The notes under the pieces were generated by a model that did not search any database, was not told the DNA's origin, and saw only the letters and a program-made list of their open reading frames with translations. A program made the translations under genes and the position numbers. Positions 2,998 to 48,054 of a stretch of DNA of 64,000 bases are shown piece by piece. Location of the stretch: NCBI RefSeq assembly GCF_056712565.1, contig NZ_CM160072.1. One strand, written 5' to 3'. How positions within the stretch are numbered: position 1 is the first letter of the stretch; every line of letters begins with the position of its first letter.

Positions 2998-4248
2998 ATG
3001 TCGTTGGCAAAAGCGTCCTTGTGGACGGCGGCCAGTACACTGGTCAAGATTGGTGCCGGGTTACTGGTCGGTAAGTTGCTGGCAGTGTCATTTGGTCCGG
3101 CGGGGCTTGGGCTGGCGGCAAATTTCCGCCAGTTGATTACCGTGCTCGGCGTGCTTGCCGGGGCAGGCATCTTTAACGGCGTAACCAAATACGTTGCCCA
3201 GTATCATGATAATCCCCAACAGCTGCGCCGCGTGGTCGGCACTTCATCAGCGATGGTACTTGGCTTCTCTACGCTAATGGCGCTGGTTTTTGTGCTGGCA
3301 GCTGCGCTAATCAGCCAGGGGTTGTTTGGTAATACCGACTATCAGGGGCTGGTGCGTTTAGTGGCGCTGGTGCAAATGGGGATTGCCTGGGGCAACCTGT
3401 TACTGGCGTTGATGAAAGGCTTTCGCGATGCCGCAGGTAATGCGTTATCTCTGATTGTCGGTAGCTTGATTGGCGTTCTCGCGTACTACGTCAGTTATCG
3501 TTTGGGCGGTTATGAAGGGGCGTTGCTGGGTCTGGCGCTGATTCCCGCGCTGGTGGTAATTCCTGCTGTTATCATGTTGATCAAACGTGGTGTCATCCCG
3601 TTAAGCTATCTGAAACCCAGCTGGGATAACGGTCTGGCAGGGCAGTTGAGCAAATTTACGCTCATGGCGTTGATTACGTCGGTGACCTTGCCTGTTGCTT
3701 ACATCATGATGCGTAAACTGCTGGCGGCGCAGTATAGCTGGGATGAAGTGGGGATCTGGCAAGGGGTGAGCAGTATTTCCGATGCCTACCTGCAATTTAT
3801 TACGGCATCGTTCAGCGTATATTTGCTGCCCACGTTGTCGCGGTTAACGGAAAAGCGCGATATCACCCGGGAAGTGGTTAAATCGCTGAAATTCGTCTTA
3901 CCGGCAGTGGCGGCGGCGAGTTTTACCGTCTGGTTGCTGCGTGATTTTGCTATCTGGCTGCTGTTGTCGAATAAATTTACCGCTATGCGCGATCTCTTTG
4001 CCTGGCAGTTGGTGGGTGATGTGTTAAAAGTGGGCGCTTATGTCTTTGGTTATCTGGTGATCGCCAAAGCGTCACTGCGGTTTTATATTCTGGCGGAAAT
4101 CAGCCAGTTCACTTTATTGATGGTATTTGCCCACTGGCTAATCCCTGCGCATGGCGCACTGGGCGCAGCACAGGCCTATATGGCAACCTATATCGTCTAT
4201 TTTTCTCTTTGTTGTGGCGTGTTTTTACTCTGGCGTAGGTGGGCATGA
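2998..4248 (+). CDS. wzxE: lipid III flippase
   Basis: 416 aa polytopic membrane protein; synteny. Confidence 0.85.
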
Positions 4249-9094: not shown

Positions 9095-9171
<77 letters not shown>

Positions 9172-9228
9172 TTTAGTCCCGGCGCTTGAGCTGCGGTGGT
9201 AGTAATACCGCGTAACAAGATTTGTAGT

Positions 9229-9305
9229 GGTGGCTATAGCTCAGTTGGTAGAGCCCTGGATTGTGATTCCAGTTGTCGTGGGTTCGAATCCCATTAGCCA
9301 CCCCA
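9229..9305 (+). tRNA. hisR: tRNA-His (anticodon GUG)
   Basis: Extra 5' G characteristic of tRNA-His; anticodon loop TTGTGAT; ends CCA. Confidence 0.9.
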
Positions 9306-9325
9306 TTATTAGAAGTTGTGACAAT

Positions 9326-9412
9326 GCGAAGGTGGCGGAATTGGTAGACGCGCTAGCTTCAGGTGTTAGTGTCCTTACGGACGTGGGGGTTCAAGTCCCC
9401 CCCCTCGCACCA
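9326..9412 (+). tRNA. leuT: tRNA-Leu (anticodon CAG)
   Basis: 87 nt with long variable arm; anticodon CAG; ends CCA. Confidence 0.9.
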
Positions 9413-9454
9413 CGACTTTAAAGAATTGAACTAAAAATTCAAAAAGCAGTATTT

Positions 9455-9531
9455 CGGCGAGTAGCGCAGCTTGGTAGCGCAACTGGTTTGGGACCAGTGG
9501 GTCGGAGGTTCGAATCCTCTCTCGCCGACCA
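9455..9531 (+). tRNA. proM: tRNA-Pro (anticodon UGG)
   Basis: 77 nt; anticodon loop TTTGGGA; ends CCA. Confidence 0.9.
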
Positions 9532-14603: not shown

Positions 14604-15797
14604 TTATTCTCCTTGCGGCGCGGCTGCCGGAGCATCAGCTTGCGGTGCAGGTGCAGGTGCAGGTGCAGGTTTAGCTTCCGTTGTCCCTGCTGCCGGTTGT
14701 GCCAGCAGGTTACGCACGCGGGTCTGCATCAATTTTTCCAGCATCGCCTGGCTTTGCAGGGTTTCCGGAAGATCCATCGAGATATTTTGCTGGCTTAACT
14801 GGTCCACCTCGTCGAGGAACGCTTTGGTGGTGGCATCATCAGTATCGTAGTAAGCACGTACCCAGGTGGAGACGTTCTCCAGCGCCTGGCGATAAGTCTC
14901 TTCCTGGTGACGCGGTACAGCTTGTGCTGCGACCAGCAGGCGAGAGCGAATATTTTCGCGCAGATAGATATCCTGATTTGGCGCTAACAGCGGTACGGCG
15001 GTGTCATCACGACGGCGAATCGTAATGAAGTTGTCCATAAAGTTCTGCCAGCTTTTTTGCAGATTGATACGCCATTCGCTGATGGAACTGGAAAGCTCTT
15101 CACCGTCGGAATCCATCGGCGAACCATCGCTGTCATTATCGGCCAGACGCAGATTATCTACCTGATTTGAAAGCTGATTAAGCTTAAGGATGATACCGTC
15201 ATAATCCACCTGCGATACCGCAGAAAGGCTGGCGATATCATCGGTAATTGCCCGGCGAACGGTAATCAGACTCGGGTCATTCATATCCGCCAGGCTGGCG
15301 TCTGCACTTTTCAGCAACGCTGCAGCGGTCGTGACGTCCTGATCGCTCCACAGCTTCCGTCCGGCGAGTTTCACCAGAAAATCGGCCTGGGCCAGCAGCC
15401 AGGTTTTAGCATCGCTGCCGGAAATGGTGGCGACCTTTTGTTGGACTTCATCCAGCTGTTTTGCCAGCGTTTCTTGCTGACGATTCGCCTGCTCAAGCTG
15501 TACAGCTTGTTGCTTGATAATGCCTTCCAGCTCGGCTTTTTGGCTCTCCTGGGCTTTTTGCAGTGCCGTAAGTTGGTTAGCCAGGGCATCGCTGGTGGCA
15601 GTCTGATTGACGGCCTGTTGTTTACCCCAGCCATACAAACCGACGCCCGCCGCCAGAGCAATAGCGATAGCCACCGCGCTGAGAATCAATGCGGTATTGT
15701 TCTTACTCTTTTTTTCTGTTGCGACAGGTTGTGACGTGGTGTCCACGGCCTCCCTGGTCTCTTCAACCACGGCGGAGGTTTTTTCTTGTTCCGTCAT
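14604..15797 (-). CDS. hemX: HemX
   Basis: 397 aa with coiled-coil and C-terminal Pro-Ala repeat; synteny. Confidence 0.8.
14641..14670. repeat. hexanucleotide tandem repeat (GCAGGT x4 plus one variant) inside hemX
   Basis: tgcggt gcaggt gcaggt gcaggt gcaggt; encodes PAPAPAPA on the minus strand. Confidence 0.7.
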
Positions 15798-20837: not shown

Positions 20838-22154
20838 TCAGGGCTTCAAAGTTTGCCCGTCTGCTGCTGCGTTCCGGCATGATTCATCCGTCACCGGAAT
20901 AATAATGTCGCTGTTATGAATTTCACGGACATTCTCTTCTCTGACGCGTGTTTTCGCCGGGCAGTGGGAGGGCGTAATCCTTACCTCTGTATCAGTCCAG
21001 GTATAAACATTGCGATCGTCATAAGCGAAGCGATCGTTTTTAGTTAGCGGACCGTTAACTGGAATAATTTGCACGCTCTTGCGTGACCGTAATTGGCGGA
21101 TAAAGTAAGCATGTTGTTTGCCGCTATTAAATGAGTCATCAATGACCAGGTCTGGCGTATCCAGCGGGATTATCTCAAGCTGGTCTTCACCAAAAGTCGA
21201 TAATTTTGTTACATACAGTCGATCTTTATACTGCGCAATATTGTCAGTAATCAGATGAAATTGTTCAGGTTCAATACCCGGTAGGTCTATCCACTTGCTC
21301 CACTGACGGTCGGGCGTGAGCTGTTTACGCCAGCGAACGCGACTTTCCCCTACTTCAAAAGAGACGTCATCATCTACGGGTATCGCTTTGCCAGATAATT
21401 GACCAAAGGGATAACGATGCAGACCCTTATTGTCGCGAAAAACCAGCAGTGAATGAGGTATCCAGCGAATTATCTCAAATGAGTCTGCATTCGCCGTAAG
21501 GTGAGCGCCATTTAAATAAATATTCTGCCCACTGCGGATAAGCAGATCATTGGAATACAAATTTCTGTTTACACTCATAAGACGTGGATTAATACCCCAC
21601 CATCTTTTTTCTAATACAGTAACATTACTGCTGCTCCCCTGACGTCGACCGGACAAGTAGAGATTTTTACTATCCACCAGCGTGGTAGAGTTACCTTCGA
21701 TAGCTTTTAGTGTCGCCAGATCAACACGTGACGCGCCGCTATTACTTTCGGTACGCTGTCCGTCAAAATAGAGGCTATATTTATCGACCGCGAAGCGGCC
21801 CATAGCCTGAAAGCTGGCAATATCGACAGTGGGTGTTCCCGGTGGATTGCTAACGATTTTGCCACGCCAGAGAATAACGTGGCCGTCTGTCACCCAGTGA
21901 TATTCCTCATTTTCTATGCTTATTTCATCGGAAGGTATATAACCCGTCTTCCCAGAGATATTTTTCACAAGGCGCAAATCGGCCCTGTTCATCTCCGGAA
22001 ATTGGGCAATGATTTTCTTATCCCCCCAATAACCTTTACCGTAAGACATGACACTGTGATCATTGTAATAGTCGAACCCTATGGCCTGTACAGGAGGTGT
22101 CAGAAATGTGTTCCCCAACAGGATGAGTGCAACTGTGATTATTTGACCATTCAT
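20838..22154 (-). CDS. secreted repeat protein with recurring D-K/R-x-(L/V/I)-Y motifs (DKNYY-like), function unknown
   Basis: 438 aa; N-terminal signal peptide; motifs DKYSLYFDG, KNLYLSG, QNIYLNG, DRLYVTK, DRNVYTW; not in K-12 gene order as I recall it. Confidence 0.6.
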   Translation of the reverse strand: MNGQIITVALILLGNTFLTPPVQAIGFDYYNDHSVMSYGKGYWGDKKIIAQFPEMNRADLRLVKNISGKTGYIPSDEISIENEEYHWVTDGHVILWRGKIVSNPPGTPTVDIASFQAMGRFAVDKYSLYFDGQRTESNSGASRVDLATLKAIEGNSTTLVDSKNLYLSGRRQGSSSNVTVLEKRWWGINPRLMSVNRNLYSNDLLIRSGQNIYLNGAHLTANADSFEIIRWIPHSLLVFRDNKGLHRYPFGQLSGKAIPVDDDVSFEVGESRVRWRKQLTPDRQWSKWIDLPGIEPEQFHLITDNIAQYKDRLYVTKLSTFGEDQLEIIPLDTPDLVIDDSFNSGKQHAYFIRQLRSRKSVQIIPVNGPLTKNDRFAYDDRNVYTWTDTEVRITPSHCPAKTRVREENVREIHNSDIIIPVTDESCRNAAADGQTLKP

Positions 22155-23650
22155 TTTGTTGCCTCATTGCGTGGGGCAGGAATAAATTCGCCGTCATCGG
22201 TAATTTTTCCGTCCAGATATCCCGTTTTGTAATTTACGCCATAGCCATATCCCGAATGTTGTTCCTTCCAGATTAAGCGAACTTGTTTCGGATCAGCGGT
22301 GCGGTATCGCCAGAGCTGCGCGCCATCAAAGCTGTAAACGTAGCGGTTATCGCGGGCATACCATCTGCGCAAAAAGGGATGGTCATTAAGATGGGCTTCG
22401 CGTTCATCCGGAGAGCGGTTATCCAGTAAGATCAGCGGTCCGTCAGATTCAAACACGTGTAAACTGGAATGGTTTACCCACCCTTCGGCACGCGTAAGTA
22501 AATAGCCGTGGCGTTTCCCGGCGTTGAAACGTTTGTTGATAATAAGATTGGGGTCATCGAGTTTTACGATCTCCAACTTGCGGTCACCAGACTCTGTTTC
22601 GATGATGGTATAAAGCGAATCCTGATACTGGGCGACAGCATCACTGATGGGGTGGAACTGTTCAGGATCGAGTCCGGATAATTCTTCCTGTTTACAAGCA
22701 GGCCCTTTACGCCAGAACACTTTCTTTTCCTGCAGAGAAAAATCCAGACAGTGCTTTGTTAAATCTTCATCCCACGCCAGATTTTCCTTGTCGAGGACTT
22801 TACGCTACAGCCCGTTTTTATCACGCCAGGTGAAGAGTGAGCCGGGCATCCAGCGCACGACGGAAAAGGTGTCCGGGTCGGCATCCAGTTGTTCTCCGTT
22901 GATCATGATTTTCGTCTGTGTGCGGGCTAGCGTATCCCAGGGGCCAAATGGGGCAGGAAGGCAGGGATTAAATGCTGTAGAGAATTTACCGCGCTGATCC
23001 CATGACTTTTGAGCCAGTACCGTAAAGGTGTCGGGATCATCAAGGCGCTGACCATTTGCGTAAAGATAGTGCTTGTCACGGAGAATCAAACCTAGCCAGT
23101 CTGGTTTCCATTGCGGGTTAAATTCTACCTGACGCAACGTTCGGCGGTTTAGTTGCTGGTTGCTATCGGTGCGTTTGCCTTCGTAATAGAGGCTGTACTT
23201 ATCTGCGGCAAAATCACCCCATGCCTGAAATGACGAGATATCGACTGGCGGTGTGCCTGGAGGGTTTTGCACAATCTCGCCAGCGTAGAGAATAGCGCGA
23301 CCATCGCTATAGTAAGAGTAATGGGGAAGAGTTGCGTTTGCGCCGCTGTAGACAACGTCTGTCATGAGATTGGTAGCCGGGGGCACCGTTTCCCAATCCT
23401 CCAGTTTGGTTGGGTCAATTAGCAAATTCGGTAACAGACGCAGACGCTTGTAGTTAATCTGCGGTAGCGAAAGATTGGTCTTTTCATAAGGGCGCAAATA
23501 CACCACGCCTTTTCCCTGTTTCTGGTAAATATTATGTTCCGGCTCATCAAGCCGACATCCCCATGCCGACGATAAAAACAACGAACAAGACAATAAACAA
23601 ACCACATTGCGATAGTGCATAAAGCCATCCTGGCGCGAGGTGCCGATCAC
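22151..23650 (-). pseudogene. paralog of the adjacent DKNYY-like gene interrupted by one in-frame TAG (minus-strand codon at 22805..22807)
   Basis: ORFs 22805..23650 and 22151..22720 are in the same frame; read-through joins them without further stops and the product aligns along the neighbouring 438 aa protein (EPEQFH, DKYSLY blocks). Confidence 0.6.
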
Positions 23651-32581: not shown

Positions 32582-33079
32582 TTATTGCTGAAAATTGTCT
32601 TTTTCAAAGTCATGCGGGTTGAACACTCGCTCTATCTTATTTTCCTGGGTTAGTTGATACTCATTGTTATCAGCAATAAAAAAATGAGTATTACGGTAAG
32701 GATATTCATTAATAACCATTAAATAGTTTTTTACGATGCAATTATCATTGCTCTTAATCGTCGGGAAACAGTAGAGATCTTCATACGGCCCTTCGATATA
32801 TTTTTTATAGTCAGTGAAGCCATTACCGATATCAATAACATACCAGGTATGCCAACTATCTTCTGGTAGGGGATTTTGACTTTTAATTTCATCCTGATGC
32901 TTCAGATACCAATTTATTTTATCGCTATCAGTCCATGGCAGATGATCAACGACCAGAAAGACTGAATTGCCAGCATCAGAGTATGTATACAAAATCTGTA
33001 CAGGACGCAATATCCATAAATTATAGATGCAGCATAGAAGAAATAAATATAATATAATTTTCTGGAGTTTTCTTTTCAT
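32582..33079 (-). CDS. small membrane-anchored protein, candidate immunity/partner protein (possibly DUF943-like)
   Basis: 165 aa; N-terminal hydrophobic anchor; very AT-rich codon usage; 4-nt overlap with upstream gene. Confidence 0.5.
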   Translation of the reverse strand: MKRKLQKIILYLFLLCCIYNLWILRPVQILYTYSDAGNSVFLVVDHLPWTDSDKINWYLKHQDEIKSQNPLPEDSWHTWYVIDIGNGFTDYKKYIEGPYEDLYCFPTIKSNDNCIVKNYLMVINEYPYRNTHFFIADNNEYQLTQENKIERVFNPHDFEKDNFQQ

Positions 33080-33924
33080 AGATAATTTTCGATTCTTTCG
33101 ATAGTGTTAAAATTGGTGAAAAAAGGTTTGAAAGCAAAGTCTTTATGCCGTTGTAAAAAGAACCATATGCGAAAAAATCTATACTTGTTGTAAATCTTGT
33201 TTTTTATATCAGTCACATCCAAACCAAAGTGGTCTTGTGCTATGAAATGAATGGTAGCGCTCCAGCCCATAGGATATTTTTGAAAATTTAAAAGAGATAT
33301 TTTTTGAGCTGAGATATCATGAATGCTGATTCCCAGGCCATTAAAATTATCTTTAAAATCATTGAATTTATTTAGTCTTGATGAAAGTAATTCGGTCTTA
33401 ATCTTTTGTAGGAGAAGAGGCCGGTATCCTATCGTAGGTGTTGAAGAAATATCATTTTCGATACATTCTTTGATTACACGTATTGGGCTATTATAATCAT
33501 ATTTGTTTATTCGTTCATGAAAAGATAAGTTCAATTCCTGGCTATGGAAACTGTTGCCATTTTCATATCTAAAATGATCAATCAGATCCTGGATGAGTGT
33601 TTTGTATTGTCCAAAAAAGGAAAACATTTTTGCCAGATCTTTCATTTCTGCAAATAAAATATCAATACATTCACTTTGTGATATTTTTGTTCCAGAAGTT
33701 GGAACACTAAAAGCACCATAAGTAGAATTCGGCCCAGGAAAATGGTATTTAATGAGGCGGTAAGGATCAACTTTTGCAGAGATGTCGCTTAAGCCGAGAG
33801 AGAGAAAATCTTGTTCTTCCATATCCCCATACTGCATATCATCAGCAGAAAAATCATCGAATAAAGTAATAGTTTCGAAAAGTGTACAGGGCATATTAAT
33901 TGATGAGCCTAATATGTTGTTCAT
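33076..33924 (-). CDS. hypothetical protein, candidate toxin/effector-like (possibly DUF3289-like)
   Basis: 282 aa; no signal peptide; AT-rich; translationally coupled to the downstream 165 aa gene; occupies the slot held by yigF/yigG in K-12. Confidence 0.5.
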   Translation of the reverse strand: MNNILGSSINMPCTLFETITLFDDFSADDMQYGDMEEQDFLSLGLSDISAKVDPYRLIKYHFPGPNSTYGAFSVPTSGTKISQSECIDILFAEMKDLAKMFSFFGQYKTLIQDLIDHFRYENGNSFHSQELNLSFHERINKYDYNSPIRVIKECIENDISSTPTIGYRPLLLQKIKTELLSSRLNKFNDFKDNFNGLGISIHDISAQKISLLNFQKYPMGWSATIHFIAQDHFGLDVTDIKNKIYNKYRFFRIWFFLQRHKDFAFKPFFTNFNTIERIENYL

Positions 33925-46621: not shown

Positions 46622-46879
46622 TCAGAAGAGGTTGTCTTGTTGTTCTTTGATAAGATTCAATCCATATTGAGAAACTCTGTAGCGTGGTTTAGAGTTGCCC
46701 TCACCATTTACGATATCAACCAACCCATGATTAACCAGCTTTGTTACGATATTCGCTACGTTGCCAAATTCTGGAATATTTCGTATAGCTAAAGTACGAT
46801 CCAGCACCATCCAGCTCCAGTCAATATCTTTCTCAGCCATAACTTTCAGCACGTTAAATTCAACTATCGTAATCGTCAT
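46622..46879 (-). CDS. small protein, candidate cognate immunity protein (paralog 1)
   Basis: 85 aa; start overlaps the stop of the upstream toxin-domain ORF by 4 nt. Confidence 0.5.
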   Translation of the reverse strand: MTITIVEFNVLKVMAEKDIDWSWMVLDRTLAIRNIPEFGNVANIVTKLVNHGLVDIVNGEGNSKPRYRVSQYGLNLIKEQQDNLF

Positions 46880-48054
46880 TTTTTTGCATCCGGATGAAAT
46901 AAGTCAGTATCTTTAATTTTAAAGTCTTCTAGAGTTGCAGTATGTGCATTATTCCATAATTCATATCCATCTAAACCATTCGGTTCACCTGTTTCCCATC
47001 CTAAATTACAATAACGCTGATACTCGCGGCATTCATGAGTATAGTAGTTCAGATCGTATTTTTCAGGAAGCAATTCTTTATTTGCTATTTTTTTTAGCCT
47101 TGAAATCATTACATCATTAGCTGGATCATGATCAAATCTGGAGATATGCTTTTCAACAATAGCGATACCTTCCCTATTGATTGTTACGCCATCTATCGTC
47201 AGGTTTTCTATTGGACCACCGGCAAGGTCGGGATTAAATGGTCTTCCTGATACTGCTCCTCTGGCTCCGAAATGCTCAAATGATTCCAAATCAGGGAATC
47301 TCATTCTTCCCAGAACAACTCCAGCAACTATTGAAGCACCAGCGATGAGTAACCCTTTGTTATCCATAACTTGATCGTAACCAGCAGGTGCATCTCCTCC
47401 CAACTTGTTTGCTGTTTCCCTGAATCCTTCGATATTCCCATTGTATATGCCGCCAGCAGCAAGCAGTCTGCCAACCGCTTTACTATTGAGTGTTTTGAGG
47501 CCATTATTATCTTTAGTTTTTTGCCGTGGTATAAACAGACGGTTGTAGTTATCGGGAAATGCCAAATGACTAAATTCAGTATTAGCAATCAGATGCCTGG
47601 AGAGTATATATTCATAACTGACAGTGATGGTTTCTGTATCCAGATTGTTCTCAGTAAACAGGTGATTGATTGCTGATAAGAGCGCGCCGCGGAGTTGAAT
47701 GTTGTAATATTTCTCCTATCGACCAAATCTATTGATCCGATAGAAGTCAAACTCCATGAACAACTGCTCGTTATTGTTAATAGCGTTAATAAGTAACGGG
47801 GAGCTTTTGTCAATCAACTTACAGAAACTAAGGCCATGTAATTGTGACCCTTTGCCTGTATTCGTAATACTATTAGATAGCGAGAACGCGAAGATTTCAT
47901 CTTCATGGCCAATCTGCCAGCGATTACCTATTGATGCGCTCGTTCCGCAACGAGAGGAAATACATCCTTGTTGTTCTCCGGTTATGGTCAGGTAAATTTC
48001 ATCACTCATCTTTGATGAACTCTCTTTATTGCTTGATGTTTTAAAAATAAACAA
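46876..48054 (-). pseudogene. Hcp (T6SS tube protein) fused to a C-terminal extension domain, interrupted by in-frame TAG at 47716..47718
   Basis: N-terminal ORF matches Hcp (YLTITGEQQG..., LSFCKLIDKSSP); the frame continues past one TAG through the rest of the Hcp fold into the 229 aa domain; likely true start MSDEIYL at 48009. Confidence 0.6.

Follow-up and report, generated by a model that had tools for sequence, protein, structure and literature searches.

Two genes in the 64,000-nucleotide stretch of Escherichia coli DNA analysed here, hereafter the window, are each broken by one in-frame TAG codon. One belongs to the DKNYY family and the other encodes an Hcp (TssD) protein with a long C-terminal extension. 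The question is what these two amber codons represent. The original prediction left three possibilities side by side: coincidental nonsense decay, sequencing errors, and conditional expression by read-through or suppression. Here, both genes are compared with their counterparts among 5426 complete E. coli genomes, and the three possibilities are weighed against each other.

The window and its two pseudogenes

The nearest complete genome is that of ATCC 11775 (NZ_CP033092.2, 4751536-4815535, reverse complement), which is 99.984% identical to the window. The differences between the two are four SNPs and one 6-nt repeat indel, and the chromosome segment is E. coli phylogroup B2, ST95-like. The indel is located at 14644..14649 of the window, where the copy number of a GGTGCA tandem repeat differs by 6 nt from that of ATCC 11775; coordinate mapping places it in frame inside hemX.

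The ATCC 11775 counterpart of the window contains 64 RefSeq features, and exactly two of these, the DKNYY gene and the Hcp fusion, are pseudogenes. Both bear the RefSeq note 'internal stop' (Table 1). This agrees with the claim that these were the only two disrupted genes in the window. The claim that both stops are real in-frame TAG codons on the minus strand was likewise borne out by translation, in which the TAG is the sole interruption of the long minus-strand frame: codon 272 in the DKNYY gene and codon 98 in the Hcp fusion. In terms of known classes, the two loci are like other 'internal stop' pseudogenes of RefSeq/PGAP, a flag that they carry in ATCC 11775, DE17 and other genomes. Both pseudogenes are already recorded in public annotation.

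Table 1. Features of the window discussed in the text, and the corresponding pseudogenes of ATCC 11775
Feature	Position or locus	Strand	Remarks
argX-hisR-leuT-proM tRNA cluster	9095..9531	+	Sole tRNA genes in the window; ARAGORN anticodons ccg, gtg, cag, tgg
Downstream DKNYY paralogue, intact	20838..22154	-	438 aa; PF13644 25.0 bits, cutoff 25
DKNYY-family gene, pseudogene via one internal stop	22151..23620	-	489 codons; translation, Pfam, RefSeq
Amber codon 272 of the DKNYY gene	22805..22807	-	CTA on the plus strand, TAG on the minus strand
85-aa ORF, intact	46622..46879	-	ATGA overlap with the stop of the Hcp fusion
Hcp (TssD) with ~230-aa C-terminal extension, Hcp-ET type, pseudogene via one internal stop	46876..48009	-	377 codons
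Extension of the Hcp fusion	46876..47565	-	
Amber codon 98 of the Hcp fusion	47716..47718	-	Inside the Hcp domain; CTA on the plus strand, TAG on the minus strand
DKNYY pseudogene in ATCC 11775	EAS44_RS24520		RefSeq 'DKNYY family protein, internal stop'
Hcp fusion pseudogene in ATCC 11775	EAS44_RS25680		RefSeq 'tssD, internal stop'

The DKNYY gene and the lptM-cyaY slot

The product of the DKNYY gene has a lipoprotein-like N-terminal signal peptide, and its family assignment was scored on the intact DE17 orthologue, which reaches 26.5 bits against Pfam PF13644 (cutoff 25). The intact 438-aa protein encoded directly downstream is a paralogue, with 37% identity over 324 aa (E 2e-61), and both paralogues pass the gathering threshold of PF13644 marginally. 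The ATG of the downstream gene overlaps the natural stop of the DKNYY gene in the sequence ATGA. A literature search for 'DKNYY' returned nothing relevant. Compared with strain HS, the gene in the window shows 34 synonymous and 17 non-synonymous differences, and the codon comparison indicates that purifying selection acted on it in its past.

The pair of paralogues occupies a variable slot flanked by lptM and cyaY. Both interrupted genes had been called accessory, and for the DKNYY gene this holds, with matches at 80% coverage or more in 1398 of the 5426 complete E. coli genomes. In about 3,500-4,000 of the 5426 genomes the match is confined to the first ~187 nt of the gene. In K-12 it is reduced to a 179-nt remnant that is annotated 'frameshifted; internal stop; incomplete'. 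The slot (window 20838..23650) is a hypervariable accessory site whose contents differ by strain: the DKNYY pair here, the same pair with a DUF3304 gene ahead of it in other strains, and the 179-nt stub in K-12. Elsewhere in the window, between rarD and corA, lies a gene pair annotated as YPO3983-family and DUF943 (32582..33924, minus strand), which may be another small accessory insertion.

The Hcp fusion and its extension

The N-terminal part of the second gene is an Hcp domain. It is matched by PF05638 over residues 6-135 (E 3e-14) and by TIGR03344 over residues 1-147 of 377 (126.7 bits, cutoff 58.9), and also by PDB Hcp chains. This gene is accessory as well: it is found at 80% coverage or more in 818 of the 5426 complete genomes, and about 846 of them have the locus.

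The gene is an orphan fusion of Hcp with a putative toxin. Fusions of Hcp with a C-terminal extension toxin, termed Hcp-ET, were described by Ma et al. (2017), here as summarised in later articles (PMC6730261, PMC6099711). The gene in the window resembles them in several respects. An N-terminal Hcp/TssD domain is followed by a C-terminal extension of ~230 aa, and the Hcp match stops at residue 147 of 377, so that the protein continues well beyond the 60 aa past the Hcp core by which the class is recognised. A small ORF overlaps the stop of the fusion at the place where an immunity gene would sit. Furthermore, homologues of the extension are also joined to other N-terminal modules, as polymorphic toxins would be. 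Two features differ from Hcp-ET: the extension has no recognised toxin domain, and the gene here is broken within the Hcp domain.

Regarding the extension itself, searches gave no Pfam match even at E<=10, no NCBIfam match and, with sequence and profile searches alike, no PDB match. AlphaFold2 was also tried as a way of naming the toxin domain; from an alignment of 29 sequences the mean pLDDT was 44.9, and the model was unusable. Enterobacterales contain more than 600 homologues of the extension, in which the N-terminal partner is Hcp, PF26362 or another module, and a few sources call them 'HNH endonuclease' or 'colicin'. Invariant residues are H140, the run E178-C179-R180-E181, W204 and H208, in the numbering of a 229-aa query fragment. 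The extension seems to be a polymorphic-toxin domain that is uncharacterised and falls outside the five described Hcp-ET clans.

The 85-aa ORF gave no family match in Pfam or NCBIfam, and its position makes it a putative cognate immunity gene. Its protein (WP_000156431.1) is annotated beside TAG and TGG alleles of the Hcp fusion alike. One of the only four SNPs that separate the window from ATCC 11775 lies in this ORF, at 46770, where GGA>GAA gives the missense change G37E.

Ancestral codons and the chance of a shared stop type

Comparison with orthologues, which the original prediction had proposed as a means of finding the ancestral codon, gave a clear answer at both sites. At the DKNYY site, all six intact orthologues (DE17, Nissle, 09-02E, HS, 2013C-4187 and RM11626) carry CAG for Gln272. 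Over 2100 nt of the DKNYY region, DE17 differs from the window in one base, and this is the base that makes the stop. At the Hcp site, TGG for Trp98 is found in all eight non-TAG alleles (ERP001, SCU-124, CU37RT-2, 21AR0173, YDC107, MLI121, A30 and Z142-6), and the stop-making base is again the sole difference across the Hcp fusion between ERP001 and the window. Thus, the TAG apart, each frame equals base for base an annotated intact gene, that of DE17 for DKNYY and that of ERP001 for the Hcp fusion. Among the sampled alleles, all those two or more positions away from the window have a sense codon at the site, including every allele more than 1% diverged, and no diverged orthologue sampled has a conserved stop at either site.

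Since the intact orthologues carry CAG and TGG, both stops are single G:C>A:T transitions. On the coding strand, the DKNYY stop is a C>T change (CAG to TAG) and the Hcp stop a G>A change (TGG to TAG). The G:C>A:T transition is the commonest spontaneous base change. The Hcp alleles also form a series, from SCU-124 (G293, G502) through ERP001 (G293, A502) to the window (A293, A502), which polarises the Hcp TAG as the latest change. Deamination of 5-methylcytosine at a Dcm hot spot (CCWGG) was considered for the two mutations and rejected, as neither strand of the ancestral contexts GGGCTGCAGCGT and GGTCGATGGGAG contains CCWGG.

Chance can account for both stops being TAG. Over all single-step nonsense targets of the ancestral genes, the probability that a stop is TAG is 0.41-0.48 for the DKNYY gene and 0.25-0.28 for the Hcp fusion. 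The joint probability that both are TAG is 0.10-0.13, or 0.22 when G:C>A:T transitions alone are counted, and two nonsense hits would share one stop type, whichever it is, with a probability of about 0.33. Two amber stops in one window therefore need no special mechanism.

Distribution of the stops and order of events

The DKNYY region is present in 1332 genomes, of which 80 have the exact 61-mer around the TAG; for the Hcp region the corresponding numbers are 845 and 256. For each gene, at least 30 genomes among the matches listed are 100% identical to the window across the whole gene. The two alleles differ in their distribution among strains. For example, Nissle, DE17 and ATCC 25922 have the Hcp TAG together with a DKNYY gene that is annotated as intact, and in Nissle and DE17 the CAG itself was read. 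Every DKNYY-TAG genome that could be cross-checked, by comparison, also has the Hcp TAG. Because the cross-checked DKNYY-TAG genomes nest within the carriers of the Hcp TAG, the Hcp stop is placed earlier and the DKNYY stop later, in a sub-lineage. From these distributions we infer that the two stops arose independently and at different times. We assign the strains that share the Hcp TAG ancestor to ST73, ST95 and related lineages.

The original prediction held that lesions of other types in the same genes would point to ordinary pseudogene decay. In the window itself there are none, but close relatives do contain frameshifts and deletions. A 1-nt deletion ~300 nt downstream of the Hcp TAG, outside any homopolymer, occurs in 22 genomes; all of those cross-checked against the TAG lists carry the TAG, and several are in both the DKNYY and the Hcp list. 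The Hcp fusion of Z142-6 has a 22-nt deletion and a further indel, and the DKNYY gene of EC190486 is frameshifted by a 1-nt deletion. For dN/dS downstream of the stops, only 0-1 substitutions since the stops arose are available; the one event that is informative, the frameshift in 22 genomes, speaks against continued purifying selection there. In the sampled B2 genomes the sequence of pseudogene build-up would be W98* in the Hcp-toxin gene, then Q272* in the DKNYY gene, and then the Hcp frameshift.

Explanation of the two stops

Very probably, the two TAG codons are ordinary nonsense mutations without any connection to each other, each of which abolished the function of a dispensable accessory gene on an E. 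coli B2 chromosome. In the proposed course of events, the Hcp fusion would have been inactivated in the shared ancestor of several lineages by the change of Trp98, and the lipoprotein-like DKNYY gene later, in a narrower sub-lineage, by the change of Gln272. RF1 would be expected to terminate translation at each UAG. The predicted Hcp product is then a 97-aa fragment in which one third of the Hcp barrel would be missing together with the entire toxin-like extension, and the predicted DKNYY product is a fragment of 271 aa. Since the natural stop of each gene overlaps the start of the next (ATGA), early termination would probably also loosen the translational coupling between each pseudogene and its neighbour, the 438-aa paralogue or the putative immunity gene, whose expression may fall as a result. 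That the frames look otherwise intact is put down to the very recent origin of the mutations, since each allele lies 0-1 nt away from an intact ancestor, and not to constraint. The spread of the TAG alleles may be owed to drift, to the success of the clones that carry them (hitch-hiking or clonal expansion), or to selection that favoured loss. Of the three possibilities that had been left open, coincidental nonsense decay is thus the one upheld, on the derived single transitions, the unlike strain distributions and the additional lesions in relatives; sequencing error is refuted, and read-through or suppression is unsupported.

An error of sequencing or assembly in the source record has a practically negligible probability. 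Assembly artefacts can be single-base substitutions, yet here the same TAG 61-mers come back in complete assemblies that many laboratories made independently, 80 for the DKNYY gene and 256 for the Hcp fusion, and the full-length identity of at least 30 listed matches for each gene speaks against an artefact in the same way. Natural recoding of UAG, whether through pyrrolysine or through a supE- or supF-type amber suppressor tRNA resident in the genome, is exceedingly improbable and has the shared stop type in its favour, nothing more. Suppressors such as supE44 (glnV CUA) and supF (tyrT CUA) read UAG and would permit expression of amber-interrupted genes; both, however, are missing from the nearest complete genome, that of ATCC 11775. 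ARAGORN found no tRNA with a CUA anticodon in the window. Outside the window, the search covered the glnV and tyrT classes in the near-identical ATCC 11775. The gln tRNA operon is wild type there, its tRNA-Gln anticodons being ttg, ttg and ctg only (one CUG copy). The tyrT anticodon is wild type as well, and the best tRNA-Tyr match is one mismatch away from the supF allele. Across the 5426 genomes the supF allele occurs in none and the supE allele in 155; among the 40 matches listed for the latter, all are K-12 laboratory derivatives. Moreover, a suppressor that inserts Gln could not bring back Trp98. Pyrrolysine decoding is similar in that a UAG stands in frame within an otherwise intact ORF, but it differs in that the orthologues here have Gln or Trp codons with no conserved UAG, and no pyl-type tRNA is found in the window. 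It requires pylT and pylSBCD, genes that E. coli is not known to have. As a separate observation on the tRNA genes of ATCC 11775, its metT tRNA operon (L025 6611..7204) contains three tRNA-Gln genes, and the median number of matching places across E. coli genomes is four.

It is also improbable that leaky termination turns each stop into an attenuator, with low-level near-cognate read-through giving a reduced dose of product and a short-lived, reversible down-regulation. Apart from the TAG both frames are intact, as this would demand, but alleles 0-1 nt from their ancestors suffice to explain the intact frames. The DKNYY stop is followed by C, reportedly a comparatively weak termination context; the Hcp stop is followed by G, and these unlike 3' contexts (TAG-C and TAG-G) have no common motif. 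Basal read-through of UAG in wild-type E. coli is low, well under a few percent. The stop is unconserved in any diverged orthologue, and no suppressor tRNA was found in the window or in the glnV and tyrT classes of ATCC 11775. In addition, the 22 genomes with the frameshift downstream of the Hcp TAG carry the TAG wherever cross-checked, and therefore any read-through product would be destroyed in them. The attenuator does agree with a general proposal by Belinky et al. (2021; PMC7918605), according to which many bacterial in-frame stops are short-lived population polymorphisms, perhaps read through and later reverted. The stops described here are similar to these within-species nonsense polymorphisms in having one in-frame stop with the rest of the gene intact, and in a stop that is common to close relatives, with almost no flanking mismatches, and limited to a shallow clade. 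Nothing material differs from the cases of Belinky et al. (PMC7918605); there is no sign here of read-through or reversion, and the secondary frameshift counts against both. Both stops thus fit the 'short-lived polymorphism' of that study (PMC7918605), and nothing here indicates read-through. A stronger form, which we consider very improbable, makes one or both UAGs reversible one-base switches, off or dim, that let through a trickle of full-length product, with ERP001 and DE17 as revertants and not ancestors. If this were true, the cell could keep, for example, a low and safe dose of the Hcp toxin, a single step would return TAG to TGG or CAG, and lineages would flip the switches back and forth. 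Real read-through would imply natural amber suppression in a wild, pathogenic strain of E. coli and would be notable, but the evidence speaks against it.

Adaptive inactivation is a refinement of the preferred explanation by ordinary nonsense mutation, not exclusive of it, and seems unlikely. On this view, selection in extra-intestinal B2 clones would have favoured losing the orphan Hcp toxin, and perhaps the DKNYY protein as well, with the immunity gene kept as protection against toxin-firing kin. The Hcp TAG is indeed common among genomes with the locus (256 of 845) and is present in several well-known clones, but clonal expansion of ST73/ST95-type lineages in the collection explains this frequency equally well. 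Parallel nonsense mutations at high frequency in the same gene were not found. The 85-aa ORF is intact and identical beside TAG and TGG alleles, as a kept immunity gene would be, whereas the window's own copy of this putative immunity ORF has the missense change G37E. Lastly, the DKNYY locus has been repeatedly lost or broken across the species, which is consistent with selection for its loss.

Consequences for annotation

The practical value of these results lies in annotation, where both loci should stay pseudogenes. The PGAP product name ('DKNYY family protein' as opposed to 'hypothetical protein') was tried as a proxy for the pseudogene state and proved unreliable: the genes so named in A25 and Z0117EC0040 are intact. 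Regarding the Hcp fusion, the 229-aa and 142-aa 'proteins' in public databases are gene-caller ORF fragments downstream of the TAG or the frameshift, and thus artefacts.
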